Assembly: GCA_045803545.1 (NCBI GenBank)
Contig: JBJMOW010000004.1
Span: 64,001 to 128,000, forward strand
DNA from: Gemmatimonadaceae bacterium
Lineage (GTDB): Bacteria; Gemmatimonadota; Gemmatimonadetes; Gemmatimonadales; Gemmatimonadaceae
Direction of reading: 5' to 3'
DNA: 64,000 bases
Below the pieces are notes generated by a model. The model searched no databases and was not told the origin of the DNA. It worked only from the letters and a program-made list of their open reading frames with translations. Every line of letters begins with the position of its first letter. Within the stretch, counting starts at the first letter, position 1. The translations under genes were made by a program, and so were the position numbers. Below are positions 4,194-21,732 of this stretch, piece by piece.

Positions 4194-7142
4194 GTGAAGA
4201 CTCTTGAGCGCGCCACGCAGCTTTTGCGAAACGCGAATTCGCTGGACACCCTCGACGAGCTTTTCCGCGAGCTTGGCTTCGCACCGCCACTGCTGCCGCT
4301 CGACCACTCGGCGCTGGCATCGCTCGGGCTCAACGCGCTGAGCGGCGCAAGGATAGTGAAAGGCGAGGGCGCGCTCCGCGGGCTGGCTTTGGCGCTTGAC
4401 CTCACCACTGAGTTGCGCGATGCGTTGACGGGCATCGCGAACGCGCTCGCCCGTAACGCCTCGCAGCTGCTGTGGATCGTGATTGCGCTTCGTCAGCCTG
4501 ACGAGCTGGCGATCGTCTGCTGGCGCTCAATCAACGGGCGCGTGCGCGTCGCGTCACTCATTTGCTCCAAAGACCGCGTGGTTCAAAGCGACGCGGAGAC
4601 ACTATGCATGCTCTCGGCCGTCGGCGGTGAGTCGGATCTGCTAACTCACGCGCGCTGGCTCGATGTACTCGGCCGCGAGGCCATCACCAACAGATTCTTT
4701 CGCGTACTCGAGAGTACCGTTGTCGAGCTCGCGAGATCGCTGAGTGGACGGGTTTCCGCAGCTGAGCGCCGCGAGCTCGCGCTGCTCTACGTGTCGCGTC
4801 TCGTCTTTCTCTCGTTTCTCGAGAGCAAGGGTTGGCTGAACGGCGATTTCTGCTTTCTGTCCAATACCTACGGCGATTGCATCGCCAAGGGCGGACAGTA
4901 CCAGCAGCGGGTTCTGGAGCCGCTGTTCTTCGGTACGCTTAATACGCGCATTCAATCGCGCTCTTCCCGCGCCCGTGATTTCGGAAGGATCCCATTCCTC
5001 AACGGCGGCCTGTTTTCGCGATCTGTACTGGAGAAGCAACGGCGGACGAGCCTGTTCTCCGACGAGGCGTTTGGCAACGCGTTCGGCAATCTCTTCTCGC
5101 GTTTTCGATTCAGCGGCCGCGAAGAGACTACCACCTGGTCCGACGCGTCGATCGATCCGGAAATCCTCGGCAAGGCATTCGAAGCGCTGATGGCAAACAG
5201 CGATCGCAAGAAAAGCGGGTCGTATTACACGCCACAGACTCTCGTCGAGAGACTTGCTGACGAAACCCTGCGCTGTCTCACACAGGGAACGACGCCCGGC
5301 GATCTCGATCGATTATGTCAGGCGAAGCTCCTCGATCCTGCGTGCGGCTCGGGCGCTTTCCTGGTGTACGTCCTTGAACGCGTTGCATCCCACCGCAAGG
5401 ATTGCGGCGAAGCCGGTACGATCGCCGATATCAGACGTCGAGTCTTGTCATCGTCGATTTTCGGCGTCGACCTCAACCCGATGGCGGTCTGGCTCTGTGA
5501 GCTGAGGCTTTGGCTTTCGATCGTGATCGAGAGTAAGGAGCCAGATCCGATGAACGTCGCGACTTTGCCGAATCTTGACCGTCACATCCGGGTTGGTGAT
5601 TCCCTCTCCGCCGGCTCCTTTGACGATCGCGGTAGCACCCTCGGCAGTCGCAAGCTTGCTTCACTGCGCGCGAGGTACATGCGCGCTGTGGGCCCGCGTA
5701 AACGAACGCTCGGGCGGGAGCTGGATCGCATGGAACGCGCGTCCGCCATCGACGTGCTCGCGCGCCGACGAGTGCGTCTCACCGTTGATCGGAAGGAGAT
5801 GCTGCTGCTTCTGCGCGCGCGCGATCTCTTCGGCTTGCGCCATCCGCCCGATCTCGCGACGCAGTTGCGTCTCAAGTCACTGCGTCAAAGTCTGCGTGAG
5901 TCAAGCGAGCGAGTCAGGTCCCTGCGCGCCGGCGCAGCGCTGCCCTTCTCTTTCGACGCTCACTTCCCGGACATCGCAGCCGCCGGCGGATTTGATTGCA
6001 TCATCGGCAATCCGCCGTGGGTGCGGATTCATCGGATCGATGCTGGTGCGCGGCAGAAATTTCGCCAGGAGTTCAAGGTCTACCGCAACGCGCCGTGGCG
6101 CAGCGGCGCCGAGCAAGCCGGCGCAGGCCGTGGATTCGCTGCGCAGGTGGATTTGTCAGCGCTGTTCGTTGAGCGTGCGTGCGGCCTCGCCCGCCCGGGT
6201 GGTGTCATTGCGTACATCCTGCCATCCAAGCTCTGGCGATCGCTGGCGGGCGGCGGACTGCGTGAGCTGCTTCTCGAGCACACCAGCATCGTGATGATCG
6301 AAGATCTGAGCGACGCGCGCAACGAGTTCGAGGCGGCGGTCTATCCATCGCTGCTCATCGCACGCAAGTGTGACGACTCCCGCGCGACACCGACTGGGCT
6401 GCGAGGCGACAAGGCTACTGTAGCCGAGGATTTAATCACGGTAACTGTGCGAACCTCTCGCGGCGGCAAGCGCTGGCGCTGCGAGTCCCACCGTCTGTCC
6501 GTCGACGGACCCGGCAGTCCCTGGCTGCTTTTGCCGGCCGCGGTGCGCAGGGCGTTCGATCGAGTAACCAGAGCAGGCGTTCCATTGCGGGTTACGCCGT
6601 TCGGCCGACCTCAACTTGGCGTCAAGACTGGATGCAACGACGCGTACATCGTTCGGGTGGATTCCGTCGATGGCGACATCGCGCGGGTCTCCAGTAGTCG
6701 AAGCGGTGTGATCGAGCGCTCGCTCCTTCGTCCCCTCGTCCGCGGTGAAACACTGGCGAGGTGGAAATCCGACAAGGCGGGCGAGTACATCGTTTGGCCA
6801 CACGATGACGACGCACACCCGATGCGCGCCCTGCCGCCTCTCGGGCGGGCTTGGCTGCTCCCGTTCCGCGACGCACTCTTGCAGCGAACGGACTTGCACG
6901 ACGCCCGACGCTGGTGGTCGGTGTTTCGCACTGAAGGCGCAACCTGCCACCGACCACGTGTGATCTGGGCAGACTTCGGCTTGCATCCCCGCGCCATGGT
7001 CGTGGCAGAGAACGATCGGTTCGTTCCGCTCAACACCTGCTACGTCGTTCACATCCAGAAACTGATCGACGCCTTCGCACTCGCCGCTATTCTGAACGGA
7101 CCATTGGCGACCGCGTGGCTGAACGCCATCGCGGGTATATAG
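4194..7142 (+). pseudogene. Eco57I/TaqI-like N6-adenine DNA methyltransferase, 5' part (interrupted by casposon)
   Basis: FLNGGLF, GSYYTP, LDPACGSGAF, IGNPPW motifs. The frame ends ...WLNAIA-GI* just inside the element's left end. Confidence 0.88.
7119..7132. repeat. Target-site duplication, left copy
   Basis: CTGAACGCCATCGC, identical to 21490-21503. The match extends 2 nt further (GG). Confidence 0.92.
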
Positions 7143-7163
7143 AGAAGCCTTCAGTTCGCTTCC
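7133..7163 (+). repeat. Left terminal inverted repeat
   Basis: GGGTATATAGAGAAG-N8-TCGCTTCC versus right-end reverse complement GGGTATAGAGGGAAG-N8-TCACTTCC (13/15 and 7/8 matches). Confidence 0.85.
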
Positions 7164-7266
7164 CCTTGTAGATTTCGTATCGCTCGACTGTCGATTTTCT
7201 ATAAAATCGTTCGCAGCCTAGACGTGTTACACTGCTCTGGCAGCGACTGACGATAGGAGGAACACG

Positions 7267-7989
7267 ATGTCTAGATGCACTGCACCCGTATACGGCCACC
7301 GTTCAGCTAGCGCGGCTGCGAACTGCCCTGCGTGCGGAAGCCGGTACCGCTACCGCAGCTACGGCTACGGGTCATACTCTCCATCGTCCTATTCTTCTTA
7401 TGGGAGCAGCGGAGCCGGTCGAAGCAGCAGCGGCGTAGCCCGAAGCAGCGCAAGACCTCGTTGGTCGCCAAGCAGTTCGTCAGCGGTCTACACCCCTACC
7501 GAGGTGGCGGCGCTTACGCCGATCCGCGACAACGTCGAGAAGCTGGCGACGGTGCCTGACCTTCGCGATGTCTTTCTGTGCCACGCGTGGGACGACCGAC
7601 AAGGCGTCGCGAAGGAGCTTCACGACCTCTTAGAGTCGCGGGGAGTGAAGGTATGGTTCAGCGAAAAGGATGTTGGCCTTGGCGTTCCGTTGCTTCGTGC
7701 AATCGACAAGGGCTTGGCTCACTCAAGAGTCGGAATAGTGCTAGTGACTCCCTCACTGTTGCGCCGCCTTCCGAACGAGGGCATTGCTGACAAAGAACTC
7801 TCGGCACTTCTAGCGCGTGAACGGCTTGTGCCAGTTGTGCACGAAACGACATACGAAGCGCTCCGCGACGTCAGTCCCCTTCTGGCCTCGCGAAGCGGCT
7901 TGAGCACTGCAGAAGATTCGATGACTGGCGTCGCGGACAAGCTCGCCGAGCTAGTTGCCTTTGAGCTCTGTCCCGCCCCCGAAGCGTGA
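7267..7989 (+). CDS. TIR-domain protein with N-terminal Cys/His (Zn-ribbon-like) segment
   Basis: DVFLCHAWDDR...GVKVWFSE...IDKGL...KEL TIR pattern. N-terminal C..H..CPAC. AGGAGG RBS. Confidence 0.85.
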   Translation: MSRCTAPVYGHRSASAAANCPACGSRYRYRSYGYGSYSPSSYSSYGSSGAGRSSSGVARSSARPRWSPSSSSAVYTPTEVAALTPIRDNVEKLATVPDLRDVFLCHAWDDRQGVAKELHDLLESRGVKVWFSEKDVGLGVPLLRAIDKGLAHSRVGIVLVTPSLLRRLPNEGIADKELSALLARERLVPVVHETTYEALRDVSPLLASRSGLSTAEDSMTGVADKLAELVAFELCPAPEA

Positions 7990-9092
7990 GTCGCCGAGAT
8001 GGGCAGATGACGCAGCACGCCAAACGGGGGACTGTCAAAGGTTCCTTGGTTGTAGTGCTTCCAGTTGTTCTGAACAGCGATGTTCCAAAAAAAGCAACGC
8101 GACTGCTGCTCAAAGAGCTGGAGGAGCAGTTTTCTCGAACTTTCCTTTCATTGCCGTGGGGCCAAGTGGCGAAGCTCAATGCTGAGCGACTAGCGTCCCC
8201 GAAGTCGTATCCGGCATACGCGCTATCAAAGACTCGCCGTGAATTAAAGGCGGGTCGGCCTCACTTGTTAAAGGTCAGCGTAGATGTCGAAGCACCTAAC
8301 GACGCGAACTGCGTTTGGGGTGACGACACGTTTGTAGTTGCGGAGCACCCGCAATCAGCGCTTTGTTCTGCGACTGAACGGCTTTTCGAGCGCGTAGCAC
8401 TGATGGCATTTGCTTCTCAGCTCGCCGCTCCTGGCTACGCTCATTTCCCCAAGACGGCGGGCTTCATCAATGATCAGCCCTGGGGTGTCGCTTCCGAGAT
8501 TTCCTGGGTGCTACATGAAGCGTGGTTCACTGCGACCAAGTACGGGTGGCCGTCGATTTCTCGACTTCCACTCCAAGAAACGGATGCATGGCTTTGCGGA
8601 ATTCCTGGAATACTTGACGGCATGGGCCGGGGCCGCACAGGACGTGCAATTGCGGCACTGTCACGCATTGTATGCAGCGATATAAATGACAGCTCTGAAA
8701 TGGGCATTGCTTGGTCGTTGCTAGGTCTCGAAGCGTTATATGCGGATGGCAGCCAAGGATCGAGTCAGCAAATCCTTCGAAAATCCGAGATACTACTTGG
8801 TCCTAGAAACCCGAAAAAGCCGCGACTGAAAGGGGTATATGACTACCGTTCTCGGTTTCTGCACGGAAGCATCGACATCCCACTTGCGTACACGAGAGAC
8901 AGCTTTGACCCGCCAGATCAAGGCAAGTTTATGAACGACACGTACGAATACTGGGGCATTGCCACTTGCATGCTGATCGCAACGCTTCAGCAAATGATTC
9001 TTCGCAATCTTGGCGAACTAACTTTTTCGTTGACTCTAGATGTGCCGCTAGCCAGTACGCCTGAATCGCGGAATCTCAAGCTACTGGGCTAG
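7986..9092 (+). CDS. HEPN-domain (ApeA-like) protein
   Basis: SLLGLEALY followed by YDYRSRFLHG (R-x4-H). GTGA overlap with the TIR gene stop. Confidence 0.7.
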   Translation: MSRRDGQMTQHAKRGTVKGSLVVVLPVVLNSDVPKKATRLLLKELEEQFSRTFLSLPWGQVAKLNAERLASPKSYPAYALSKTRRELKAGRPHLLKVSVDVEAPNDANCVWGDDTFVVAEHPQSALCSATERLFERVALMAFASQLAAPGYAHFPKTAGFINDQPWGVASEISWVLHEAWFTATKYGWPSISRLPLQETDAWLCGIPGILDGMGRGRTGRAIAALSRIVCSDINDSSEMGIAWSLLGLEALYADGSQGSSQQILRKSEILLGPRNPKKPRLKGVYDYRSRFLHGSIDIPLAYTRDSFDPPDQGKFMNDTYEYWGIATCMLIATLQQMILRNLGELTFSLTLDVPLASTPESRNLKLLG

Positions 9093-10227
9093 GCGAGTCG
9101 TCGTTTCCATTTGCCTCAATCAGTTTCGCAATGAGGGCCGGGATTGGATTGCGACTAAGCGCGTGCTGTTCCGCCCACGTTAGCCACTGTTTTGTGTTTG
9201 AGTTTGCGGCTGACTCGGTAGCCTCACGGACCGCTGCCACGAACGATAAAAGAGTTTGACTCCGCGCCCACTGCATTGCTTGCTCTTCCAAGTGGCGTAT
9301 TCGAGCTAGTTGCTCTTCTTTTCGTCTCGCAATTTCCGCCAGACGCTTTGATTCAAGCGCTCTAATTCGCTCCGCATCTTCCCAGTACGCTGCGCTTTCA
9401 ATCTCATTGTACGCTCTGGCAAATGCTGCAAATATGAACTCGTTAAGGCGGTCTTCGAGTTTGCCGGTTGGCGTCTCGTCTAAGCTTTTGTCTACGCCGT
9501 GTCCCCAACTATTTCTGAACACCAAGGCGAGACGGCCCGAAGGTTCGTCCTTGTACTTGGGTTCCCAGCTTGACGTCGCCTGCGTCGCAACCTTCTTGAG
9601 TTTTTCGCGAATTCCGAAGGGGATTTCGCGGCCAAGTATGTTCACGTAGGTATTGCGATCCCGCTCCTTTCGCTTCGAGCTGAGAGAAACTTTCCACCCT
9701 CTTTCTTCGAACGCTTTAACGAGAGCGTCCATGATGCGAAGCGCTCGCGGCAGAAGGTCTCGCGTGACCTCTACGTCGAGATACGATTCCTGGTAGTTGT
9801 ACAGAAATTGTTTGAAGGTCGATTTGCCTGATTGCCTAAGTATTTGTTCAGTTCGGCGGACAAGTGGATGCGCATTTCGAAGCGTGTCAGCGACAACGAC
9901 GAGGTTTTCCGGGACGAACTCGAACTCTTCCTGCTTTCTCAGCGCATGTGGCTGGGAGAGATTTATAGGCTCTGCGTGATACCCCAACGTCACTTCGCGA
10001 TCTGTCAGCGAAGGATTCTGCGGCAATGCTGGCAGGGGTTTTTGCTTCACTGGATGTCCGGCCGCTTTCTTGGCCCAATACCCACGTCCAGGGACCGGCA
10101 CGCGTAATCGCTTGCACGTTTTCGCGAGGCCGACGTCCGACAGTCCATAATGCGGCGCGAGGTTTTTCATCGGCTCTGTCCACACTCGCTCGTACAACTG
10201 CTCACGCGTTAATCTGACGATCTCCAC
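9076..10227 (-). CDS. Hypothetical protein with N-terminal HTH-like motif
   Basis: LTREQLYERVWTEPMKNLAPHYGLSDVGLAKTCKRLRVPVPGRGYWAK. Start trimmed to GTG 10227. Confidence 0.75.
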   Translation of the reverse strand: MEIVRLTREQLYERVWTEPMKNLAPHYGLSDVGLAKTCKRLRVPVPGRGYWAKKAAGHPVKQKPLPALPQNPSLTDREVTLGYHAEPINLSQPHALRKQEEFEFVPENLVVVADTLRNAHPLVRRTEQILRQSGKSTFKQFLYNYQESYLDVEVTRDLLPRALRIMDALVKAFEERGWKVSLSSKRKERDRNTYVNILGREIPFGIREKLKKVATQATSSWEPKYKDEPSGRLALVFRNSWGHGVDKSLDETPTGKLEDRLNEFIFAAFARAYNEIESAAYWEDAERIRALESKRLAEIARRKEEQLARIRHLEEQAMQWARSQTLLSFVAAVREATESAANSNTKQWLTWAEQHALSRNPIPALIAKLIEANGNDDSPSPVA

Positions 10228-10238
10228 GGATTGCTTCG

Positions 10239-10976
10239 TTACGATTTGACTTTGATGAGCTTGCCGTTGACGCACTCATAGAAGTCGGGATTCCTGTCAG
10301 CAACTTGCTGGACCAGATCGTCAAAGACCTCAGTGAGTGAAACCGTCTTAGTCGCGTCTCCGACCTTGTACGTTGCTACGCTCGCGGCAAATGGCGATGC
10401 TCCCATGAGGAACAGATACAGCCGCTCGAATTGCTCGTCACGTCCAGCAGGGTCATTGCGATCAGTGAACAGTCGAAGCCTGCTGTGAGCATTAATAAAA
10501 GTCGGACGTCTTTTCGCTGTTCCGTCTGTCTCTGCGCCTTTGTCGAAAAACATGAAAGCGGCAAGAACGGCGTACGGGAAGCGGCGATGCAGTGTGACTG
10601 CTTCGATCAGCATGTCACCGCGACGATTGGTGAGGTTCTTCTGATAATTCTTTGAGCGCTTGTCTTTGAAAGAGATGGCCTTAATCGAAATGCCGAGGAG
10701 GAGTCCTGACACTTCGGTTGCCCACGTTACATCTACTTTCTTCGCGCCGATTCCTCCCGCCATTCTGCGCTCAGCGCCAGACCCTTCAAGCTCACCCGGA
10801 CCAGCGGGCCGTGCACCGTCGAGTCCGCGATTTCGCAGTTCTTCTGCGCACGCGAGTGCGATCTTCTCCGATAAGCGCTCGGAGTAACGCTTCTTTACTT
10901 CCCTCGATGAATCGTCTGGAGGTTTTTCGCCGACAGCCTTTAGCGCTGCCTCGAAGAGTTCGTCAATCGCGGCCAT
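10239..10976 (-). CDS. Putative type II restriction endonuclease (PD-(D/E)xK-like)
   Basis: KKVDV...GISIK pattern. Overlaps the 3' end of the MTase gene. Confidence 0.6.
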   Translation of the reverse strand: MAAIDELFEAALKAVGEKPPDDSSREVKKRYSERLSEKIALACAEELRNRGLDGARPAGPGELEGSGAERRMAGGIGAKKVDVTWATEVSGLLLGISIKAISFKDKRSKNYQKNLTNRRGDMLIEAVTLHRRFPYAVLAAFMFFDKGAETDGTAKRRPTFINAHSRLRLFTDRNDPAGRDEQFERLYLFLMGASPFAASVATYKVGDATKTVSLTEVFDDLVQQVADRNPDFYECVNGKLIKVKS

Positions 10977-12645
10977 TGGCTGACCTACTCCGCGCTTCGC
11001 GTCGCCCGAACAACACTTCTTTCGATTCGCGAAGCGAAGCGATTGCTTTGTAAGACAGACCGCAAGCCGCCGAGAGAATGACTCTGTCCACGAGCTTCAC
11101 AGCTTCGGACAGCTCCCCTCTTCCTAGCGCTTGATTCACCTGAGGACGTAGCGCTCGCAATTCGTCACCGAAAGCGAGCAGAATTTCAGGTGACGGAACA
11201 GGCAGCTTGTCGGCTTCAGTGGGTTCCAACTTCAGAAGGCCACCACCATACGCTCGACCGACCATCTCAGCGCCGAGCAACGTGAGACTGTTTATAGAAG
11301 CGAGTGGGAGAAGGTCCATACCGAGCTTTCGATAGTCCTGCCTGAGTGCGACGCCGTACAGAGAGTTCAGATAGCGTACTCGCGCCAAGTTGGTAGTGAG
11401 TCTAGGTCTCACATGATCCATGTACGTCAACAGAATATCAGGGACAGCTTTAACGGGAACTTTCCACCAAGGTTTGCGATTTCTGCACTTGTAAGCCTCG
11501 TGGACGTTCATCGTCTCGCCGAGTGCGATGTATTTCTCTGCTGCATCAGAGAGTTCGCCTTCGCCGGTTGGCGCGAAAAGGTAGACACTCGCTCCATGTT
11601 TGCCGAGTTCTTCCCAGCTCTTTTTGGTGAACGAGAGGCCGCGCAAATGCCGAGACCCCGGCGGCGAAATTCTTTGTAGCTCGTTGCGCCTGATGCCTAA
11701 CTTCTTCACCTCAGCAACCGTCAGCGTGAAGTAGGCATTGTTACCAGTGACAGAGCCGAGAGACGTGTCACCCCAATCCAGGAGAGTGCAGAAGCCATCA
11801 CCTGTAGCAGTGTCGCGGTATTGTTTGACCGCCTCCGTTGGAAGCAGAGCGGAAGTCCACTTACCGCCTTTATCTGGTGCGAACCAATTCCAATCGCCCG
11901 TCTCCACGCTGCCGAGTGCACTCAGATCGTACGCTTGCGACACCTCGAAGTGCGGGGCGGGTCCCTCGCCCTCAGCGAGGAGCAACACAACATCTTCGAG
12001 AACTTGCGGGAAGACTCGCGCTTCAAACATGACGAGACGAACAGACTTGAATCTCTTCAGCAGAAAGCGACGAACTTCGGCCGCGTAGTTGACCGTCAGC
12101 AGCTCGGCGGGAAGAACTAGTCCGAGTCTTCCACCGGGTTTGAGAAAGCAAGACGCGTGAACAACGAACGGAGCCCACGAGCTCGTGAGTCCGGTGAGGC
12201 GCACCCCCTGTGTCAGTGCGGCTTCCAACCCCTTGAGACGATTTTCGCCTGCGAAATCTTGGTAGCGTACATACGGCGGATTGCCGATCACAGCATCGTA
12301 GCGCGGAACAGGTTCGATGTCGAAGAAATCACCAACGTAAATCTCTGGACGATACCCAGCCTCACCCATGATTCGCTGAGCTTGTTCGACTGATTCCGGA
12401 TGAACGTCGACGCCGACGATCTGAGGCGGGAAAGGAAGCCCGTCTGCTCTGAGAGCTGAGAGGCGAGTTGCAGCGGGGAGAAGAAAAGCCGCTTCCCCGC
12501 ATGACGGTTCGAGCACGGCATCATCAGGACTTCGCACAGCCCAGTCCACTATGAACTGGGTCATGGCGGATGGCGTGAAGTACGCGCCTCTAGTTTTTCG
12601 TTGTGCGAGAGTATCAGCCACAGCGGGCCCTGGGTTGGTCGCCAT
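10963..12645 (-). CDS. N6-adenine DNA methyltransferase (gamma class)
   Basis: GAYFTP, LEPSCGEAAF, VIGNPPY and GGGLLKLEP motifs. Confidence 0.92.
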   Translation of the reverse strand: MATNPGPAVADTLAQRKTRGAYFTPSAMTQFIVDWAVRSPDDAVLEPSCGEAAFLLPAATRLSALRADGLPFPPQIVGVDVHPESVEQAQRIMGEAGYRPEIYVGDFFDIEPVPRYDAVIGNPPYVRYQDFAGENRLKGLEAALTQGVRLTGLTSSWAPFVVHASCFLKPGGRLGLVLPAELLTVNYAAEVRRFLLKRFKSVRLVMFEARVFPQVLEDVVLLLAEGEGPAPHFEVSQAYDLSALGSVETGDWNWFAPDKGGKWTSALLPTEAVKQYRDTATGDGFCTLLDWGDTSLGSVTGNNAYFTLTVAEVKKLGIRRNELQRISPPGSRHLRGLSFTKKSWEELGKHGASVYLFAPTGEGELSDAAEKYIALGETMNVHEAYKCRNRKPWWKVPVKAVPDILLTYMDHVRPRLTTNLARVRYLNSLYGVALRQDYRKLGMDLLPLASINSLTLLGAEMVGRAYGGGLLKLEPTEADKLPVPSPEILLAFGDELRALRPQVNQALGRGELSEAVKLVDRVILSAACGLSYKAIASLRESKEVLFGRREARSRSANGRD

Positions 12646-12720
12646 CGCGAAAGGAGGCAAGCGCTGCGGGAAACTTACGGTGCGCCTTCGGTTTAGCCAA
12701 TGCCTTTCTAGCTCAACAGT

Positions 12721-12954: not shown

Positions 12955-13036
12955 GACCCGCCTCCAGCGGAGTAAGTCGGGTAAACTGCACTAAGCAGCA
13001 GCATACTTCGCAACCTGATTGGCGCGACAATAATCA

Positions 13037-14611: not shown

Positions 14612-15464
14612 TGAGCAACTCCGGAATAATAGGAACGGTGATGAGGGCAAAAAGCATTTGCGACTCAATATCAGGGTGTACGGTGTGCTTACTAAGCAGA
14701 GCAACCAACGGCGCTTGATCCGCGCGCTCGGCGGAGATTCGTGGGAGGGCTTCGCCTATAGCCGCCGCAACTTCGAGGAGATCGAGAGGCGTTTTCTCAG
14801 CTACTTCGATAAAGTTCGCACGCGCCCATATCGTGGCGAACGAACGAAATGCAGAATCCCAGCTCGAAGAGTGAAAGAGCTGATCCAGCGTCTTTCGCTC
14901 TGATTGTAGCACTGGGGTGAATTCACCTTCGCCGAGTTTTGCGATCAAAACGGCGAGATTGCCGTAACGGTTCTTTGGGTATCGCCCGGGCTTATTCACA
15001 GCTCTCCGGACATCCCGTAAGAACGGACTTGATATAGCTCCGCTCGAATGATTGATCGCGTGCTCGACTAGTTGCGAATGTTCGGCGCCGGTACGTGTTC
15101 GTAGTCTGTCGAACTTGGTAGCTGCGCGCACGAGTGCAGCTCGAAGCATGGGCTCCGGAACTGTGTGACCTGCGCGCCAAAGAGCCCAAGCAGAATGCCC
15201 GAGTGGTATACGCAACGCGGAGACACGGTCGGCGCGTAGGCCAGAGACGCGAGCGATTATCCGCAGACGGTGCAAGACGGTTTGAGAGAATCGCGCGGCT
15301 TCCCATCCCGCAGCTCGGCCGCGTCCACGTCTTTTTGCGATTGGCGGCTCTAGGAGCCCTGCTTGCTGCCAACGCCGGAACTGATCGCGCGAAACGCGAA
15401 GCCCCTCCACTCGAAGGGCGGCCCGCATTTCCTCAATGGTAAGGGACTCCGGCTGAGCTTCCAC
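14580..15464 (-). CDS. Hypothetical protein, N-terminal winged-HTH-like region
   Basis: LTIEEMRAAL...VSRDQFRRWQQAGLL. Overlaps the cas1 start. Confidence 0.6.
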   Translation of the reverse strand: MEAQPESLTIEEMRAALRVEGLRVSRDQFRRWQQAGLLEPPIAKRRGRGRAAGWEAARFSQTVLHRLRIIARVSGLRADRVSALRIPLGHSAWALWRAGHTVPEPMLRAALVRAATKFDRLRTRTGAEHSQLVEHAINHSSGAISSPFLRDVRRAVNKPGRYPKNRYGNLAVLIAKLGEGEFTPVLQSERKTLDQLFHSSSWDSAFRSFATIWARANFIEVAEKTPLDLLEVAAAIGEALPRISAERADQAPLVALLSKHTVHPDIESQMLFALITVPIIPELLNAATEARNNQ

Positions 15465-15584
15465 GCTTTAATTTAGTACTGCGCGCCTAAGCCCGCAACA
15501 TTAAACTGCGCAAGTAGTTAGCCTCCTACCGCAAGCGGATGCAGCAGGCGTCCGTAGCAGTCTTGTTTCCACCCAGGAGGCCCC

Positions 15585-15782
15585 ATGACGACCTATCTCA
15601 CCTCGGCAGACGCCGCGAGGGTTCTCGATCTGTCGCCCAGCGCTGTACGGCTGATGGCGCGGCTCGGAACTCTCCGCGTCTCAGCTCGAACCGAAGGCGG
15701 TATTTCCCTTTTCCGACGCCAAGACGTCGAGCGATTAGCAGCTCGCCGAACACTTCTCCATCGCAATCAAGGGAGGAGCTAA
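15585..15782 (+). CDS. Excisionase/MerR-like HTH protein
   Basis: YLTSADAARVLDLSPSAVR...F...DVE. AGGAGG RBS. Confidence 0.85.
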   Translation: MTTYLTSADAARVLDLSPSAVRLMARLGTLRVSARTEGGISLFRRQDVERLAARRTLLHRNQGRS

Positions 15783-15786
15783 TCGG

Positions 15787-16092
15787 ATGCCGAAGCGCAA
15801 ACGGGGCACATCACGCCACCTCACCAAGGAGATGCGATTCCTGACTCCGCAGGGTGTGGTTGCGCTGCCGATTCGAAACTCACAATCCGCGTCAGATATC
15901 GGCGAGTACTGGAATGCAGTGAATCACTATCTCAAAACAGGCCGCTCAAATCGACTGAGACCGTTTCGAGGCAGAACGGTGCAAGCAGCAGGAGCGCAGC
16001 ACCGATTCGTCACTGATGAAGCGACGTTAGAACGATTGGCGAATGCTGGTGAAGTGCGCTTTGAAGACCTCTACGTACTCACCGGGCTCTGA
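15787..16092 (+). CDS. Small basic hypothetical protein
   Basis: GGAGG RBS. Lies in the operon between the HTH and HNH genes. Confidence 0.7.
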   Translation: MPKRKRGTSRHLTKEMRFLTPQGVVALPIRNSQSASDIGEYWNAVNHYLKTGRSNRLRPFRGRTVQAAGAQHRFVTDEATLERLANAGEVRFEDLYVLTGL

Positions 16093-16101
16093 GAGACGGA
16101 A

Positions 16102-16521
16102 ATGAAAACCAACTCAAATGCCGCGCGGAACGTCGCTCGGCGGGCAAGGAGAGCGAGAATGTTTCCGGCAAGTGCAGTATGCGCGTTGTGCGGATATGCC
16201 AACCCGGTAGCCCTGATAGCAGTAGACAAAACCCTTCTCGAAGAGCATCACGTTTTCGGCGCTGCTTTCGATGACGGTACGCGCATCCCATTGTGCCGCA
16301 ATTGTCACGCGGAAGTTACGGAGGGAATTCGTGCAACGGGCGCATCCATGCGCCCGCAGCCGTCGTTGTTTGAGAATCTCATACAGGCAACCAAGGCGCT
16401 TGAGGTTTATTACCGTGCTCAGGCAATTACGCACGGTCGCATCGCGCATGAACTGCAACGGCGAGTCGATACGCTCGACGCGCTATTTCCCGATTGGCGC
16501 TCCATCGAGGAGGAACTATGA
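16102..16521 (+). CDS. HNH endonuclease-like protein
   Basis: CALC...EEHH...LCRNCH. ATGA overlap with polB. Confidence 0.8.
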   Translation: MKTNSNAARNVARRARRARMFPASAVCALCGYANPVALIAVDKTLLEEHHVFGAAFDDGTRIPLCRNCHAEVTEGIRATGASMRPQPSLFENLIQATKALEVYYRAQAITHGRIAHELQRRVDTLDALFPDWRSIEEEL

Positions 16522-19500
16522 CCGCCGACCGCTTACCGATTGCGCTCAGAGCGTACGCCGAGCGCACTGACGTACCGCACAGAGGCGGTTCGCCACTCGC
16601 CCGCAAAGTTTGGCCCCAACAAATCCTTGTCTTCGACACAGAAACGACAGTTGACGCGTTACAACGCCTCACGTTCGGTAGCTATCGACATCTGGAACGT
16701 GGCGCCGATGGAAAAGCGACGCTACTCGAAGAAGGGCTTTTCTACGAAGACGCGTTGCCGAGGTCGGATCCGAACGGCTTCGCTGCGTTGCGAGCGTACG
16801 TTAAGCAGCATTCCGAATTGAAACTGTTTTCGAAGTCGGAGTTTCTTGGCGAGGTCTTTTACAGAGTCGCTTACCAAGCGCGCGGGTTAGTCGTTGGCTT
16901 CAATCTCCCATTTGATCTAACCAGGCTCGCCGCTACTTGGGGTGAGGGACGAGAAAAGTTCTACGGTGGTTTCTCGCTCGTACTGTGGCAGGCTTGGCAC
17001 CCAGAAAGAGAAGAGTGGATCGAAGATCCTTGGCGGCCTCGCGTTCTACTCAATCTCGTCAATAGCAAAATGGCATTTATCGAGTTCGGTACACCGATGG
17101 AACTCGATCCCCGAGACGCGGTTCGCGACGCAACGCAGCAAGTAGGCGCGAGAAAAAGGCCGTGGGCGTTTCGCGGAAATTTCTTGGACGTTAGAACGCT
17201 AGCGTTTGCGCTTACGGGCGAGTCGTACTCACTCGAAGGGGCATGCAAAGCGTTTAACGTCGAGCATGGAAAGACGGTAGCAGAGGAACACGGCAGGATT
17301 ACCGACGCCTACATCGAGTATAACCGTCGCGACGTACTTGCTACTAGCGAGCTACTAGAGCGGCTAAAACTCGAATTCGACACACACCCTATAGCTCTTA
17401 ACCCATGTAAGGCGTACTCACCCGCGAGTATCGGCAAGGCCTATGTACGGGCGTTGGGCGTTACATCCCCTGTTGTAAAGTTTGCCGATATACCGCGCGA
17501 ACTCCACGGAATCGCGATGAGCGCTTACTACGGTGGTAGAGCAGAGTGTCACATTAGAAAAGTACCGCTACCCGTAGTTCACACCGATTTCATCTCGATG
17601 TACCCGACTGTTTTTGCACTGCTCGGAATGTGGGCTTTAGTCACGGCCAAAAGTATCAGCGTTGAAAGGTGCACTGAGGAAGCACAACGCCAGCTCGATA
17701 CCGCAAGTACCGATGCCTACTTCCAGCAACATCTATGGCGCGACCTGAATTGGTTTGGTGAGATCGAACCTGATGGTGACATCGTTCCTGTTCGCGCTCA
17801 GTATGATCCTTCAAGTGATGCACTGAACATCGGCGTCAATCAGTTCTCTACGAGCCAACCATTTTGGTATGCTGGCCCCGATTTAGTAGCCTCGCTCCTA
17901 CTTACGGGTAAAGCTCCAAAGATCAAACGGGCAATTCGCCTAGTAGCGAACGGTCGGCAAGATGGACTCAAAGAAGTTCTGTTTTCGGGAAGCTTGCCCA
18001 TCGACGCGGCTACCGGCGACTTCATAAAGAACGTGATCGAAGAAAGAAAGCGCACTCAGCGCGGTACTGCCTTAACTCGCGAAGACCGCGACCGGATTGC
18101 GCGCACCCTTAAGCTCGTTGCGAATAGCACGAGCTACGGAATCTTCGCCGAGGTCAATCAGCAGGTACTTCCACTAGACACCGAGGCAGATGTAAGAATC
18201 TTCGCTTCGGGAAAGAGTTTCGACGCTAAGACTCGTCGTCCTGAAACGCCGGGCGAATTCTGTTTCCCGCCGTTTGCTGCACTCGTGACCGCAGCTGCGC
18301 GATTGATGCTAGCAATGCTCGAACGGACTGTGACGGACGCAGAAGGGACCTTTGCCTTCTGCGATACCGATTCGATGGCGATTGTGGCGACTGAAAATGG
18401 TGGTTCTGTCGCGGTACCTGGTGCGACTCGCCGACATCAGAACGGAGTGCGAGGAGTAAAGGCGCTTTCGTGGTCAGCCGTGAACGAGATTGTTCAGCGC
18501 TTCGAAGCGCTAAACCCGTATGAGCGATCAGTCATTCCCGGGTCCGTCCTCGAAATCAAGGATGTGAACTTCGATGATGAGCGAAAGCAACGGCAACTAT
18601 ATGTCTACGCAATCGCTTCAAAGCGGTACACGTTCTTTGCCAAAAACGGCGAGAAAAAAGTCCAGATCATTGAGCCTTCGGAGCACGGTCTCGGACATCT
18701 GATAAATCCGCTGACTGACGGAGGGCCTCGGCAATGGATCGAGGTGTTTTGGGAGTATATCGTGGCTGGCGCATTGGGCTTGCGGCCCGTGCGACCTTCC
18801 TTTCTACACGTACCCGCGTTGACGCGTATTACCGTCAGCTCACCGCATATTCTGCGACCGTTTGCGCAACAAGAGAAGGAATTACCGTTTAATGAGCGCA
18901 CTAGCCCAACGGTATTTCTTTTGAGCGCGAGCATCGCTCCGAATGGACATCCAGTTGGTGCCGACCCGGAACGCTTTCACCTGTTGGCACCGTACCAACG
19001 GGATTCAACTAAGTGGCTGGAAATGAAATGGACCGAGTTACACTCAGCTCATGATTATCCGGTAACAACGGAATTTCCGGCCCCGCCTTACGTGGCACAA
19101 GTTCGTTCATTCGCGGACGTGCTGACAGATTTTGTTATGCGACCCGAGCCTAAAAGTGCGTCCAGTTCTGGCGAGCTTTGTGAGAGAAAAACGCTCGGGT
19201 TATTGCAGCGTCGCGATGTCCGCGTTGCTTCGATCCATTGTGTTGGAAAGGAAACCAACCGACTCGAACCAGTACAACAGGGTTTGGTACATGATTGGAG
19301 CGAAGTCTATACGCTTTACCGCAATCCTGAATTGGATGCCTGGCGCAACGATATCTTGCCCGGCTTGAAACGGATTCGACGCAAAGCACTGAGCGAAGCA
19401 ACCGGCATTACTCGGCGCGCGATTCGTTCAATTCTTAATGGCTACAGCCTTCCGAGCCCAAGGACGCGAGAGAGATTGATAGCGACGCTCGAAACACAGG

Positions 19501-19541
19501 CTTCGCCAAGTATTGCAACTGGCGGTAACCGTCCGTTATGA
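16518..19541 (+). CDS. polB: Family B DNA polymerase with C-terminal HTH
   Basis: Exo I FDTET, Exo II GFNLPFD, Exo III YNRRD, YYGGR, motif A DFISMYP, motif B KLVANSTSYG, motif C CDTDS, KRY. GAGGAGG RBS. Confidence 0.93.
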   Translation: MTADRLPIALRAYAERTDVPHRGGSPLARKVWPQQILVFDTETTVDALQRLTFGSYRHLERGADGKATLLEEGLFYEDALPRSDPNGFAALRAYVKQHSELKLFSKSEFLGEVFYRVAYQARGLVVGFNLPFDLTRLAATWGEGREKFYGGFSLVLWQAWHPEREEWIEDPWRPRVLLNLVNSKMAFIEFGTPMELDPRDAVRDATQQVGARKRPWAFRGNFLDVRTLAFALTGESYSLEGACKAFNVEHGKTVAEEHGRITDAYIEYNRRDVLATSELLERLKLEFDTHPIALNPCKAYSPASIGKAYVRALGVTSPVVKFADIPRELHGIAMSAYYGGRAECHIRKVPLPVVHTDFISMYPTVFALLGMWALVTAKSISVERCTEEAQRQLDTASTDAYFQQHLWRDLNWFGEIEPDGDIVPVRAQYDPSSDALNIGVNQFSTSQPFWYAGPDLVASLLLTGKAPKIKRAIRLVANGRQDGLKEVLFSGSLPIDAATGDFIKNVIEERKRTQRGTALTREDRDRIARTLKLVANSTSYGIFAEVNQQVLPLDTEADVRIFASGKSFDAKTRRPETPGEFCFPPFAALVTAAARLMLAMLERTVTDAEGTFAFCDTDSMAIVATENGGSVAVPGATRRHQNGVRGVKALSWSAVNEIVQRFEALNPYERSVIPGSVLEIKDVNFDDERKQRQLYVYAIASKRYTFFAKNGEKKVQIIEPSEHGLGHLINPLTDGGPRQWIEVFWEYIVAGALGLRPVRPSFLHVPALTRITVSSPHILRPFAQQEKELPFNERTSPTVFLLSASIAPNGHPVGADPERFHLLAPYQRDSTKWLEMKWTELHSAHDYPVTTEFPAPPYVAQVRSFADVLTDFVMRPEPKSASSSGELCERKTLGLLQRRDVRVASIHCVGKETNRLEPVQQGLVHDWSEVYTLYRNPELDAWRNDILPGLKRIRRKALSEATGITRRAIRSILNGYSLPSPRTRERLIATLETQASPSIATGGNRPL

Positions 19542-19572
19542 CCACCCTACATTTAACTATGTGCCCACAAGC

Positions 19573-19956
19573 ATGATAAAGCTTCGACCGAAAACGGTGC
19601 GTGATGCGGTAGGACCTTTTGCTGGCGCTGTCCTACTGACGCTTTGGGCATTCTTCATATTCGACGCCAATTGGCTAGAGCGCATAATCCTCGCGATCAT
19701 TTTTGGGTTTTTCGCTCAAGCCATTGGACTGATCGCATACTTCACGGCGTCGTACTTTAGCGCTTGGCTGATGGGCGAAAAGCTTGACACCAAGTCAATC
19801 GACATCTACGACCATCGAGTCGCGGGTGCGTTGCTGCTCGCCGCATTCGTGTACGTATTAGGCCAGCATTGGCGAAGCAGTGCTCGCGACTCTATAGCTC
19901 GCTGTGTACGAGAGGAAACTCGCGTGAGCATTCGGGCAGTTCACCAACGCGGTTGA
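19573..19956 (+). CDS. Membrane protein (about 3 TM), 3' end possibly frameshifted
   Basis: Hydrophobic segments. ATG at 19573. Confidence 0.6.
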   Translation: MIKLRPKTVRDAVGPFAGAVLLTLWAFFIFDANWLERIILAIIFGFFAQAIGLIAYFTASYFSAWLMGEKLDTKSIDIYDHRVAGALLLAAFVYVLGQHWRSSARDSIARCVREETRVSIRAVHQRG

Positions 19957-20042
19957 CTTAGTCCAGTACTGCACCGATGAATACGGGCGCGAGGATTCCT
20001 CGCCGGACGACTGACATCATTCTGCGCTAGGCGCAGCCGTAC

Positions 20043-20678
20043 TCAGGTACAGGTCGCTCGAAGGCCGGTGAGCCTGACCTTCTTCACAGTCACAGTTGAA
20101 AAGCCATTCGACACCGCGAGTACCATAGGACTCGCCTGACCCGTGCGCGCGTCGAGTGTCACCGCAGTCGTCTTGTCGGTCTGAAAGTACGCGTGTGCCT
20201 CGTGACCATTCACGAAGTTCTGATAGTCGTCTTTCGCCAGAACAACAACCTGGACGTCCTTCGCTCCCCCGTCCGTCACTTCAATGTGACCCGTGACATG
20301 ACACTGCGCTTGTTGCGGCGTAACGTTCCATTCGAAGGATTGAATACTGCCAGCGGGTATCGTGATCTCTCCGTCAGGAGCGAGTTGTGTCACCGATGGC
20401 TGCATCACTTGTAACGCGCTGGCGGCTGATCGAGCACCACTCGAAGAGTCGTCGTTGTTTGCTGTTGCGAGGACAATGAAGAGTACCAACACCGCGAGGA
20501 CCAACAGACCGACCATGTTGCGAGTTCTGTTCGAGCGCTGCTCGACAGGCTTGGACGGAGCAGGGCGTTCAGGTTTGGGGGTGGCTGGCGCCGACGCCGC
20601 AGGCAAATCGCGTTTGCAATGTTTGCACACTACAGCAGCGTCTTGGATTTCCTCAGCGCAGTAAGGGCACGTTCTCAT
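20043..20678 (-). CDS. Zinc-ribbon + TM + beta-rich extracytoplasmic domain protein
   Basis: MRTCPYCAEEIQDAAVVCKHC, Pro-rich linker, one TM helix. Confidence 0.8.
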   Translation of the reverse strand: MRTCPYCAEEIQDAAVVCKHCKRDLPAASAPATPKPERPAPSKPVEQRSNRTRNMVGLLVLAVLVLFIVLATANNDDSSSGARSAASALQVMQPSVTQLAPDGEITIPAGSIQSFEWNVTPQQAQCHVTGHIEVTDGGAKDVQVVVLAKDDYQNFVNGHEAHAYFQTDKTTAVTLDARTGQASPMVLAVSNGFSTVTVKKVRLTGLRATCT

Positions 20679-20889
20679 TAAATCAGCTCGGTGATGGACT
20701 GGCTTTAGACGCCTACATGCAAACACCCGCAACCGCGCGTTCCTTGCGCTTTCGATATTGCCAGCGTTCTTCGCGAGTCGCGGCAAGAAATGATAGAAAA
20801 CAGGCAGTTCGGTGATATAAAAACGACATTGTTCTAGCGGCCAAAGCAGGGCAGTGTAGGGTGACGAATGCTTCTCAACAGGAGGTCGC

Positions 20890-21060
20890 ATGGCCCGCGT
20901 CCCACCTTATCACACCAACTCTCCCGAGTACCCTCCTCAGCATCGCGAGGTGTATCACGACAAAGACACCTGTCCAGACGGTAGGCGCATTAAACGCGAG
21001 CACCTTTTACAGGGCACGGGGAACAAGAAACACTGCTTCGAGTGCGACAAGGTTAGTTAG
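20890..21060 (+). CDS. 56-aa His/Cys-containing small protein (not in ORF track)
   Basis: AGGAGG RBS. MARVPPYHTNSPEYPPQHREVYHDKDTCPDGRRIKREHLLQGTGNKKHCFECDKVS*. Followed by a hairpin. Confidence 0.75.
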   Translation: MARVPPYHTNSPEYPPQHREVYHDKDTCPDGRRIKREHLLQGTGNKKHCFECDKVS

Positions 21061-21071
21061 CCAATAAAGAA

Positions 21072-21106
21072 AGAGCGGGTAGGACTGAAAGGTCCTTACC
21101 CGCTCT
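21072..21106. terminator. Hairpin between convergent small genes (probable terminator)
   Basis: AGAGCGGGTAGGAC-loop-GTCCTTACCCGCTCT. Confidence 0.7.
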
Positions 21107-21128
21107 GATCGTTTCTACTTCTAGCCAG

Positions 21129-21335
21129 TTACGGCTTTCTCCATTTGTCGGGATGACCGGCCGATGTGTCCCGCACACGCTCAACGTGCGGAGCAACACC
21201 AGGCTCTAATTCCCTCGCGCGTGCAATCGCTTCCTTCTGAGTCGGCTCGACTGCACTCGCCCGCTGAGAACCTGCACGTCGCACTGCGTAATCGCCTTCC
21301 TCTCGACGTTCGACAAAAATTTTTTTGCTAGACAT
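21129..21335 (-). CDS. DUF2188-like protein
   Basis: YAVRRAGSQRAS...TQKEAIARARE pattern. Confidence 0.75.
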   Translation of the reverse strand: MSSKKIFVERREEGDYAVRRAGSQRASAVEPTQKEAIARARELEPGVAPHVERVRDTSAGHPDKWRKP

Positions 21336-21458
21336 CGTAAACCTACCGCGGAAGAGGTTTAGGTGAGACTCTTATGCACGATAACATCGCGTAATGTGCA
21401 AGTGGTAGATCGAGGCCGCGTGAAGAACGGTAGTTGTTAGTACAGATCGCTACTTGGC

Positions 21459-21489
21459 GGAAGTGATTCTTGCCCTTCCCTCTATACCC
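21459..21489 (-). repeat. Right terminal inverted repeat
   Basis: Reverse complement reads GGGTATAGAGGGAAGGGCAAGAATCACTTCC. Confidence 0.85.
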
Positions 21490-21503
21490 CTGAACGCCAT
21501 CGC
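21490..21503. repeat. Target-site duplication, right copy
   Basis: CTGAACGCCATCGC. Confidence 0.92.
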
Positions 21504-21732
21504 GGAGCCGGCCCGCGGTGGTTATCGACGCTACCTCGGCTGGACAATGGCGATGTTGCCGGTGCCTTCGGGTTGGAGCCGTGTTCGGAAAGTCCTTTCG
21601 CCGCTTGGTGAGCGCGCAACGGACGGCGATATCCCGTCAGACAGCGATCTGCTGGACGCAGCGCTCGAGGCGTATCGGCTGCGGCGTGAAAAGGTGCAGC
21701 CGTTGCTTGATTGGGGGATTGCCTGCGACTAG
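21490..21732 (+). pseudogene. 3' remnant of the interrupted host methyltransferase
   Basis: Reads LNAIAEPARGGYRRYLGWTMAMLPVP..., an in-frame continuation of WLNAIA. Confidence 0.85.

Follow-up and report, generated by a model that had tools for sequence, protein, structure and literature searches.

A casposon within an N6-adenine DNA methylase gene of a Gemmatimonadaceae soil bacterium

In a Gemmatimonadaceae soil bacterium, a casposon of 14,357 bp sits within the gene for an N6-adenine DNA methylase, and separates 980 host codons from the 75 that once followed them. The locus lies in a stretch of 64,000 nucleotides (assembly GCA_045803545.1, contig JBJMOW010000004.1, positions 64,001 to 128,000 of the forward strand; hereafter the window, whose own numbering is used throughout). 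The original prediction, that a casposon splits a host DNA methyltransferase gene here, is borne out by the Cas1 and PolB genes, terminal inverted repeats, and target-site duplication (TSD) of the element, by the alignment of a full-length homolog to both gene parts, and by a contig carrying the empty site. We consider it highly probable that this was a recent, site-specific casposon integration at a recurrent attachment site, and that the two-gene module formed by the methylase and the adjoining SNF2-family helicase is most likely switched off.

Casposons, self-replicating transposons that integrate by means of a CRISPR-type Cas1 enzyme, have been studied as likely ancestors of CRISPR spacer integration. 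In the mechanism we propose, by homology to studied casposases, the Cas1 casposase of a family-3-type element would have integrated it at a single 14-bp site, CTGAACGCCATCGC, which encodes L-N-A-I-A and lies in the predicted DNA-recognition domain of a type-IIG-like methylase of about 1055 amino acids (aa). The target strands would have been cut with a stagger of 14 bp, the GGG-ended termini joined to them, and the gaps filled in, which would have given rise to the duplication. In consequence, the methylase has lost its last 75 residues and gained G-I-stop, and the SNF2 gene that overlaps it has been moved 14.4 kb from its upstream DNA.

In the papers found in the literature search, casposase biochemistry rests on archaeal enzymes (from A. 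boonei, M. mazei, and N. koreensis) and on their tRNA or aEF-2 targets. In the locus described here, the natural target of a bacterial casposase is well defined, occupied and empty alleles are 1.5% apart, and the gene contains a second site; in addition, there is a large set of relatives with targets ending in TTGAC. How a bacterial Cas1-type integrase reads its target thereby becomes open to direct test. It also provides what is probably a natural knock-out of a methylase-helicase pair that is present in almost every Gemmatimonadaceae genome.

Anatomy of the split gene and the inserted element

With its ends taken as GGG...CCC, the insert spans 7133-21489, and the duplication is then 14 bp long (Table 1). 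A perfect direct repeat of 16 bp, CTGAACGCCATCGCGG, is found at 7119-7134 and 21490-21505, because the GG that follows the duplicated bases is common to the inverted repeat. The 14-bp core occurs only twice in the 3.70-Mb genome, and the reversed pattern, used as a control, does not occur at all. At the inverted ends, GGGTATATAGAGAAGC and GGGTATAGAGGGAAGG, 13 of the 16 terminal bases pair; about 40 nt of the repeats can be aligned with one 2-nt indel, at an identity of about two thirds over 40 nt. The GC content is 0.52-0.59 inside the element, as against 0.59-0.66 in most of the flanking 1-kb bins.

To the left of the insert, the called open reading frame (ORF) of 982 aa (4194-7142, plus strand) extends past the host part of the gene and ends in ...LATAWLNAIAGI (read as ATAWLNAIAGI), where the final G-I-stop is contributed by the casposon end. 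The TAG stop, at 7140-7142, lies within this left end, in the sequence GGGTATATAG. To the right, the frame resumes in 21454-21732 (...SIPLNAIAEPARGGYRR...GIACD*, or in a longer view ...LPSIPLNAIAEPARGGYRRYLGW...DWGIACD*), reads LNAIA-EPARGGYRR at 21490, and continues for 75 residues after LNAIA. The stop at WLNAIA-GI* inside the left repeat, the resumption as LNAIA-EPARGGYRR past the right one, and the joined length of 1055 aa (980 + 75) had all been read from the DNA in the original prediction, and they agree with what was found here.

The reconstructed protein is matched by its homologs over its full length. Residues 1-981 of a full-length homolog, P0004, align to 4194-7133 at 85% identity, and its residues 977-1056 to 21490-21729 at 92.5% identity (tblastn). 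The overlap between both pieces consists of the 5 repeat-encoded residues; no residue is missing, and only those five are doubled. When the 982-aa piece was searched against 5.8 billion proteins, the matches listed included 120 close homologs, nearly all of which are 1045-1062 aa long, and those with names are annotated as 'N-6 DNA methylase' of Gemmatimonadaceae. The homologs do not end near LNAIA, and the tail in the window corresponds to their C-termini, with near-identical sequences (in P0004, ...WLNAIAEPARGGYRRYLGWTMAMLPVPSRWGRVRKVLSPLGERAMEGDAPSDSDLLDAALDAYRLRREKVQPLLDWGIACD). Removal of the element and one repeat copy yields a frame that matches about 120 listed homologs to the end, which is far beyond chance.

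The uninterrupted join also exists in nature. A 2,073-nt contig from run X3 (study P2, soil; depth 12.4), which is 98.5% identical to the window with 32 differences, joins position 7121 to 21493 and skips 14,371 bases, corresponding to the element and one repeat copy. Thirteen letters fit both sides of this joint, which is in frame by arithmetic from the coordinates, and the depth over the element interior is near zero in this run. The contig is an empty-site allele in a 98.5%-identical strain and constitutes no evidence of excision. The occupied form was found at an identity of at least 99% in runs X1 and X2 (study P1), and a 1,579-nt contig from X1 bridges the right junction (20780-22358) with 0 differences. 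The contrast between occupied and empty sites is evidence that the element has been mobile. Element parts without cover in runs X2-X4 were not used as evidence.

These contigs, together with related loci described below, also bear on the assembly itself. It is extremely improbable that the casposon was wrongly joined into the gene during assembly of a metagenome-assembled genome. The genome is in 6 contigs and probably a metagenome bin, and the left junction is not among the listed X1 bridging contigs. However, the right junction is bridged without a single difference, exact TSDs and restoration of the reading frame are unexpected of a chimera, and the same architecture is present in the independent assemblies G077, L098, L104, L103, and G571.

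Each of the 14 other congeneric genomes has the methylase, and none of them carries a casposase. In one of them, G597, the site is uninterrupted (...GCCTGGCTAAACGCGATCGCCGAGCCGGCT..., that is, AAWLNAIAEPARGG), and the methylase matches listed for these congeners run unbroken, with no internal stop, to at least residue 1051 of the 1056-aa query. Because the TSD copies are identical, no congener carries a casposase, G597 is uninterrupted, and an empty allele is found in X3, the insertion is probably a recent event.

The run X4 (soil, from a third study) contains pieces that are 95-98% identical to the casposon, with little host flank, at 7195-8279, 9453-9791, 16158-16398, and 21234-21389. The match of one of its contigs to the window breaks off at 21389, which is 100 nt short of the right end, suggesting that a close relative of the element resides in another context.

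The genes of the insert identify it as a bacterial casposon, with a Cas1 casposase, an HNH-like protein, and a family B DNA polymerase (PolB) between inverted ends and a 14-bp TSD. The casposase matches Pfam Cas_Cas1 (2.5e-35) and TIGR00287 (96.7 bits, cut-off 71.7), and its best solved relative is 6opm_A (7e-21), which we take to be the M. mazei casposase. Residues H286, D298, and E301 are invariant in its alignment (A1), along with a CxxC...CxxC block, and its C-terminal extension comprises a Cys4 zinc ribbon and a helix-turn-helix (HTH)-like conserved end, ...PHPRHW..., common to six relatives. The motifs of PolB cover the exonuclease as well as polymerase motifs A, B, and C; its Pfam matches are weak (DNA_pol_B_2, E 0.0012 and 18.3 bits, cut-off 25.8; HTH_3, 3e-4), and it had 0 matches by sequence among solved structures in the PDB. 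For the 139-aa protein, only sub-threshold Pfam matches were found (zinc ribbon, E 0.28; DUF7097, E 0.0035).

This gene set recurs in related elements. In a tblastn survey of 81 sequences, namely 80 related loci and the window itself, PolB homologs were found beside cas1 in 72, and the 101-aa and 139-aa proteins beside cas1 or polB in 43 and 14, respectively. Both small genes are also present in G077, G111, G277, G150, G342, and G571 (tblastn). Among the 15 element ORFs scanned with Pfam, PADLOC, and NCBIfam, none matched a tyrosine or serine recombinase, a DDE transposase, or any integrase family besides Cas1, and no other cas family was detected in the Pfam and PADLOC scans. The repeat listing of 3500-22500 showed no CRISPR-like array (no dedicated CRISPR finder was run).

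Table 1. Features of the split methylase locus, in window coordinates
Feature	Position	Strand	Remarks
Host N6-adenine DNA methylase gene, 5' part	4194..7132	+	Codons 1-980 host-encoded
Left TSD copy, 14 bp	7119..7132	.	CTGAACGCCATCGC
Left terminal inverted repeat	7133..7172	.	Starts GGGTATATAGAGAAGC
ThsB-like TIR-domain protein, 240 aa	7267..7989	+	PADLOC ThsB 3e-124 over full length; Pfam TIR_2 1e-15
368-aa partner of the ThsB-like protein	7986..9092	+	Start overlaps ThsB stop; ApeA-like HEPN look-alike
Cargo ORF, 399 aa	9076..10275	-	Same operon, 9076..12660
Cargo ORF, 245 aa	10239..10976	-	Same operon, 9076..12660
Cargo type II N6-adenine methylase, 565 aa	10963..12660	-	PADLOC MTase_II 6e-175; Pfam M_Eco57I_C 2e-18, Eco57I 4e-13
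Casposase (Cas1 homolog)	13037..14704	-	ORF of 555 aa; translation probably starts at an internal Met, some 33 codons downstream
294-aa ORF upstream of cas1	14580..15464	-	No family match; weak relative beside cas1 in G342, 27% identity
101-aa conserved casposon protein	15787..16092	+	Divergent from cas1
139-aa HNH-like zinc-finger protein	16102..16521	+	CxxC...HH...CRNCH, by eye
Family B DNA polymerase, 1015 aa, C-terminal HTH	16494..19541	+	Motifs FDTETT, DFISMYPT, KLVANSTSYG, FCDTDS
147-aa ORF	19513..19956	+	No family
282-aa zinc-ribbon protein	20043..20891	-	Pfam Zn_ribbon_3 4e-4
Right terminal inverted repeat	21450..21489	.	Ends ...CCTTCCCTCTATACCC
Right TSD copy	21490..21503	.	
Host methylase gene, 3' part	21490..21732	+	LNAIA, 75-residue tail, and stop
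Host SNF2-family helicase gene, 744 aa	21711..23945	+	Pfam SNF2-rel_dom, Helicase_C, ResIII

Recurrence of the insertion and features of the target

A survey of related casposases, suggested as a check along with the original prediction, showed the same target in G077, in G571, and among protein ends at the same codon, and a second site of the gene in G111. In a Cas1 profile search, casposases were found in 9 of 401 genomes of the family, including the window genome and the unpublished G571. In G077, a casposon of 11,658 bp occupies the same codon, with the TSD CTCAACGCCATCGC, a Cas1 that is 51% identical, and the same core of cas1, small genes, and polB; the host methylase is only 47% identical to that of the window. 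Its left junction reads TGGCTCAACGCCATCGCGG/GTTAAGAGAG..., and its right junction ...CTCTTAACCC/CTCAACGCCATCGCGG/AGCC (slashes mark the boundaries). The ends of this relative are better preserved, with 15 of 16 terminal bases matching and about 37 nt well matched.

Further cases were found in metagenomes. A literal scan for the left junction returned 10 stretches, of which 7 were chance matches in unrelated genes and 3 were real: contigs L098 and L104 share the left junction of G077, and L103 has a variant of it. The scan was too strict for the contigs of P0009 and P0043, 2 proteins of 993 aa (ending in WLNAIAGI) and 987 aa (ending in WLNAIAG) that are cut off exactly as in the window and G077 and represent two more host lineages. 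Pairwise identities among the 4 N-terminal pieces (window, G077, P0009, and P0043) are 46-78%. When the 92-codon tail ORF was used as a query, 73 short proteins were found, mostly fragments at contig ends. In 7 of these (P0124, P0125, P0129, P0133, P0168, P0179, and P0193), unrelated residues are followed by ..[S/P/Y]-I-P directly before L-N-x-x-A-EPARGG, in which 'IP' is the translation of the ...ATACCC casposon end in that frame. Another tail, P0142, lies on a contig whose length, 41,755, equals that of the contig encoding P0009. All of these tails are at most 86% identical to each other, and the occupied status of P0009, P0043, P0129, and similar proteins is read from their protein ends. 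Together, at least ten host lineages have this site (site A) occupied, namely the window, G077, the 7 tails, and P0142, with G571 left out of the count.

In G571, two casposons lie between the body and the tail of the methylase, about 29 kb apart. The junctions read ...WLAVIA/GGTATAGAGAG... and ...CTCTATACCC/TTGGCGGTGATTGC/CGAGCC; the site is at the same protein position, and the 14-mer differs at about half its bases. G571 is the sole source of the two-casposon observation, and as an unpublished genome it needs the permission of its depositors for publication. The stretch of about 29 kb (L108 and L109) is filled by the two casposons, whose cas1 genes have opposite orientations, and a polB fragment between them, which points to repeated use of the site. 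In G111, a related casposon (Cas1 42% identical) with near-perfect inverted repeats of about 100 nt occupies the second site of the methylase gene (site B), ...AFESLMASR/ERKSSGAFYTP..., with the TSD TTAATGGCCTCGCG; this element spans a contig break. The methylase gene thus appears to be a recurrent attachment site of a casposon lineage, not a one-off or random hit.

A shared site could also stem from common descent, if one ancient insertion had been inherited vertically, and the divergence of Cas1 between the window and G077 (51% identity) is indeed similar to that of the methylase (47%). This explanation is very improbable and contradicted by several results. The site is empty in a 98.5%-identical strain, and the 14 congeners have no casposase and, in those listed, an unbroken methylase. 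The TSDs are perfect in both the window and G077, and neither split gene has decayed. Moreover, a casposase was found in only 2 of 14 other genomes searched in the genus of G077 (G077 and G533), and the methylase of G533 is intact.

Across species-representative genomes, 421 relatives of this Cas1 were confirmed; Acidobacteriota/Terriglobia account for most of the best 80. The methylase lies beside the element in only 2 of these 80 loci, both from Gemmatimonadaceae. The end-finder confidently bounded 28 of the 80 elements, all of which start with GGG(A/G/T)T.. and have TSDs of 14-15 bp; in many of the other 52, the locus runs into a contig end or the repeats have diverged. Next to the element end, the TSD ends in TTGAC in 23 of the 28 bounded elements, which are mostly from Acidobacteriota. 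The exceptions include Gaiellaceae and Acidimicrobiales loci (L029, L049, and L090), L072 (titled Bryobacteraceae), and the Gemmatimonadaceae locus L018 (loci L018-L097).

On the opposite strand, the sequence of the methylase site is GCGATGGCGTTCAG in the window and GCGATGGCGTTGAG in G077, and ends in TTCAG and TTGAG, respectively, at the position of TTGAC. The sites of the window, G077, and G150 (CCGACACATTTGAG) share the form N9-TT(G/C)A(G/C). Between sites A and B, 5 of 14 bases agree in register, and a shift by one position raises the agreement to 10 of 14. Beside the TSD, the flank GAGCCNGCNCGCGGTGG, which encodes EPARGG, is conserved in the window, G077, and G571. Archaeal casposases follow a leader-TSD logic in target choice, as described in the accessible parts of two studies (PMC8464041, PMC9939771), and by analogy this flank is a candidate 'leader'. 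A tRNA gene as the target was ruled out, as none was found in the window or in six related loci.

In G150, an intergenic casposon (L016, 2250-2360 and 12790-12900) with the TSD CCGACACATTTGAG has a solo copy of a right end (...CTCTATCTCTATACCCC) directly before its left TSD. We read this solo end as what remains of a tandem insertion, or of an earlier one, at that site. In G277, a 9.4-kb stretch (L014, 8944-18338) encodes a casposase homolog with 42% identity and has no PolB match; its inverted repeats of 30 and 66 nt end in TATCACAAATCTGATGTC instead of GGG..., no TSD was found, and the elements of this genome were not bounded by the end-finder. This stretch may be a non-autonomous or different Cas1-bearing element.

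The interrupted methylase-SNF2 module and the effect of the insertion

The host methylase matches Pfam Eco57I (6e-24) and N6_Mtase (1e-11), with MmeI_hel and MmeI_Mtase below the cut-off, and the PADLOC models for type IIG REase/MTase (5e-46) and DrmMI (2e-27). A full-length model of P0004, built with a 40-sequence alignment (pLDDT 70.5, pTM 0.58), resembles CamA (Z 21.4, model residues 340-1042), M.BseCI (Z 20.4, residues 337-1045), BREX PglX/BrxX (Z 19.1, residues 161-1050), MmeI (Z 17.4, residues 165-1051), and DrdV (Z 16.7). Like the type IIG/IIL enzymes MmeI, BpuSI, and DrdV, the protein is a single polypeptide with a gamma-class N6-adenine methylase domain, a helical spacer, and a recognition domain at the C-terminal end. 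Its N-terminal 162 aa, folded alone (pLDDT 81), showed weak likeness only, with a best Z of 6.5, too low to be relied on; DrdV residues 2-147 scored Z 6.0, BpuSI 27-174 Z 5.0, and several restriction-endonuclease-like folds Z 4-5. An invariant lysine or (D/E)xK was not seen in a 5-sequence alignment of this N-terminus. Neither these 162 aa nor the C-terminal 224 aa of the SNF2 protein matched a Pfam family, even at E values up to 5.

As the start of the SNF2 gene overlaps the methylase stop by 22 nt, the two genes form one operon. The helicase itself has partial DpdE- and DrmD-like matches below the cut-offs. The order of glycosyltransferase (GT2), methylase, and SNF2 gene, inspected in a few related loci, is retained in G077 and G571, and in G111 the genes are split over two contigs by the insertion. 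Of 401 family genomes, 374 have the methylase, as do 234 of the 242 that are of high quality, in a tally that covers the unpublished genomes G157, G586, G571, G481, G613, and G418. The module resembles parts of known defence systems and differs from these systems in gene content: BREX needs PglX with PglZ, BrxC, BrxL, and others, and DISARM needs DrmA, DrmB, and DrmC with DrmMI/DrmD, whereas only the methylase and the SNF2 helicase are found at this locus, next to a glycosyltransferase, a TPR protein, a PadR regulator, and a histidine kinase. The PglX, DrmMI, DrmD, and DpdE matches are partial and far below the curated cut-offs. The pair is a near-core module that fits no catalogued defence system, and the methylase behaves unlike a patchy defence gene.

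The insertion cuts the protein between residues 980 and 981, inside a helix predicted at 971-984 in the P0004 model and directly before the invariant block A981-E-P-A-R-G-G..R.LGWT...LP. Among 40 homologs, 22 columns are invariant in the last 76 residues (981-1056). A sequence alignment with M.BseCI crosses the cut (AILNGPLATAWLN-AIAEPARGGYRRYLGWT against its ...RRYL... segment), and the structural alignments reach the ends of the CamA and M.BseCI recognition domains, suggesting that the lost tail is part of the DNA-recognition domain. We infer that the methylase is inactivated by loss of this tail. Expression of the SNF2 gene, which the insertion has placed 14.4 kb from its upstream DNA, is probably poor or absent; the last gene of the element points away from it, and no promoter-like site was found in 20800-21800. 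The original prediction had proposed that the insertion may disable a modification or defence locus. The disabling is well grounded, with 22 invariant residues cut off and the SNF2 gene separated, whereas the defence label is not established for a gene found in 374 of 401 family genomes.

Could the insertion be harmless? In such a safe harbour, the 982-aa methylase would still work, or the 92-codon tail ORF would complement it, and the site would be used only for the conservation of its sequence. Both pieces are intact ORFs, the in-frame, TTG-started ORF 21454-21732 begins inside the right end, and other integrating elements commonly use conserved 3' gene ends, according to the accessible parts of a survey of casposons (PMC4046053). 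This is nevertheless quite unlikely: the element does not rebuild the lost end and adds only G-I-stop, the cut falls in a recognition-domain helix before the 22 invariant residues that include EPARGG..R.LGWT, the equivalent segment in CamA and M.BseCI is part of a DNA-bound domain, and the SNF2 gene loses its upstream operon context.

Conversely, silencing could be what the element gains. The casposon lineage would then have chosen this gene as a landing pad, with at least two sites, because silencing a host DNA-surveillance module benefits the element, and precise excision would re-enable the module. Related casposons use two sites of this 3.2-kb gene, the motif these share is no rarer elsewhere in the genome, and the module resembles type IIG enzymes, BREX PglX, and the DISARM DrmMI/DrmD parts. 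Because the M. mazei casposon excises precisely, leaving no footprint and a single empty target in vivo (PMC10359463, accessible parts), the disruption is conceivably reversible; excision here would restore the frame, as the X3 empty allele shows. If this were true, the casposon would serve as a means of counter-defence and, at the same time, as a genetic switch that acts reversibly on the epigenome of its host. We regard this as unlikely, however. No defence activity is known for the module, its family matches lie below curated cut-offs, and, with 374 of 401 family genomes carrying it, it is near-universal in a way that most defence systems are not. Occupied sites are rare (4 of 374), the X3 empty allele is a 1.5%-diverged strain and not evidence of excision, and conservation of the protein motif alone would make a dependable target.

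Several observations also weigh against our preferred reading of a site-specific integration that switched off the module. In G277 (two), G150, G342, and G533, the casposons lie outside the methylase gene, of which each genome has an intact copy at another place, and only 4 of the 374 methylase-bearing family genomes searched carry an insertion in it. A shared degenerate motif, CTNAANGNCNTCGC, was rejected as the cause of two hits in one gene, as it occurs 23 times in the genome and its reversed control 20 times. The 982-aa ORF and the tail are both open and undecayed, and a shortened enzyme that is partly active is conceivable. Promoter and terminator scans of both element ends gave 0 sites each; promoters of this phylum are poorly known, so that no certain conclusion can be drawn from them. 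Finally, the inverted repeats in the window are imperfect, which makes the present mobility of this element uncertain.

Comparison with known casposons and the cargo genes

Published casposons occupy different targets. In the accessible parts of Krupovic et al. 2014 (PMC4046053), 10 insertions are intergenic and 8 overlap coding sequences, of which three lie in the 3'-distal part of the aEF-2 gene and five overlap the last 4-7 nt of tRNA genes. The original prediction had called the methylase gene an unusual target, and against this record, as far as the source is accessible, the description holds. With the tRNA and aEF-2 casposons, the present element would share site-specific casposase integration in a conserved gene, with a duplicated target next to a conserved flank. 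It differs in that 75 conserved codons (7% of the protein) are lost and not replaced, and in that the target is a DNA-modification gene instead of a translation gene (PMC4046053, accessible parts). Tandem copies at one site are known for tRNA and aEF-2 casposons, and find a parallel here in G571 and in the solo end of G150.

The element is most like family 3. Family 3 casposons such as NitAL212-C1 share with it the combination of Cas1, PolB, and, putatively in the present case, an HNH-like protein, a bacterial host, and the fusion of Cas1 to zinc-binding and HTH parts (PMC4046053, accessible parts). Its repeats start with GGGTATA, compared with GGGGTATG... in NitAL212-C1 and GGGATAG... in AceAut-C1, and its TSD is alike in size to the 14-15 bp given for both in the accessible parts of the supplement (PMC4046053). 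The family-3-type assignment is tentative, and is drawn from the host, the Cas1 fusion, and the likeness of repeats and TSD. The family 3 elements HenMar-C1, NitAL212-C1, and AceAut-C1 are entered as intergenic in the supplement (PMC4046053, accessible parts), whereas the element in the window and its relatives have a fixed site in a protein-coding gene, which loses its end.

Outside the casposons, the nearest parallel is the transposon Tn7. Tn7 inserts downstream of glmS, so that the gene stays whole, and uses TnsD rather than a Cas1-type integrase. Like the elements described here, it reads conserved coding sequence for a single chromosomal site and forms tandem arrays (compared in PMC4046053, accessible parts).

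A full-text literature search found no casposon in Gemmatimonadota, although subscription literature outside it could hold a report. Two papers co-mention casposons and Acidobacteria, neither of which is about such elements by its title or abstract, and no title or abstract in the search reports a methylase gene as a casposon target. What is new here is the fixed target within a near-core DNA methylase gene, the truncation of that gene, and a host phylum not reported with casposons; the casposon as such, most like family 3, is of a known kind.

The left half of the element holds two sets of cargo genes. The first is a pair at 7267-9092, a ThsB-like protein and its 368-aa partner. Thoeris systems combine ThsB with a ThsA effector of the SIR2/SLOG or Macro type; here, ThsB is matched, and the neighboring protein hits no ThsA model, nor any Pfam, PADLOC, or NCBIfam model. 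Atlas features (0.96) and structure (TM 0.79/0.82) link this partner to a cluster auto-named 'Apea-like HEPN', which serves as a lead only. Possibly, the pair represents a transposon-borne variant of Thoeris of a TIR-HEPN type.

The second set is the operon of a type II adenine methylase with two further ORFs of 245 and 399 aa. Neither ORF matched a Pfam, PADLOC, or NCBIfam family, and the Atlas clusters to which the 399-aa ORF was linked are all unnamed. From their position, the two may form an undescribed restriction partner of the cargo methylase. Cargo methylases have been reported in some casposons, according to the accessible parts of PMC4046053; in the present case, the casposon carries its own adenine methylase while breaking that of its host.

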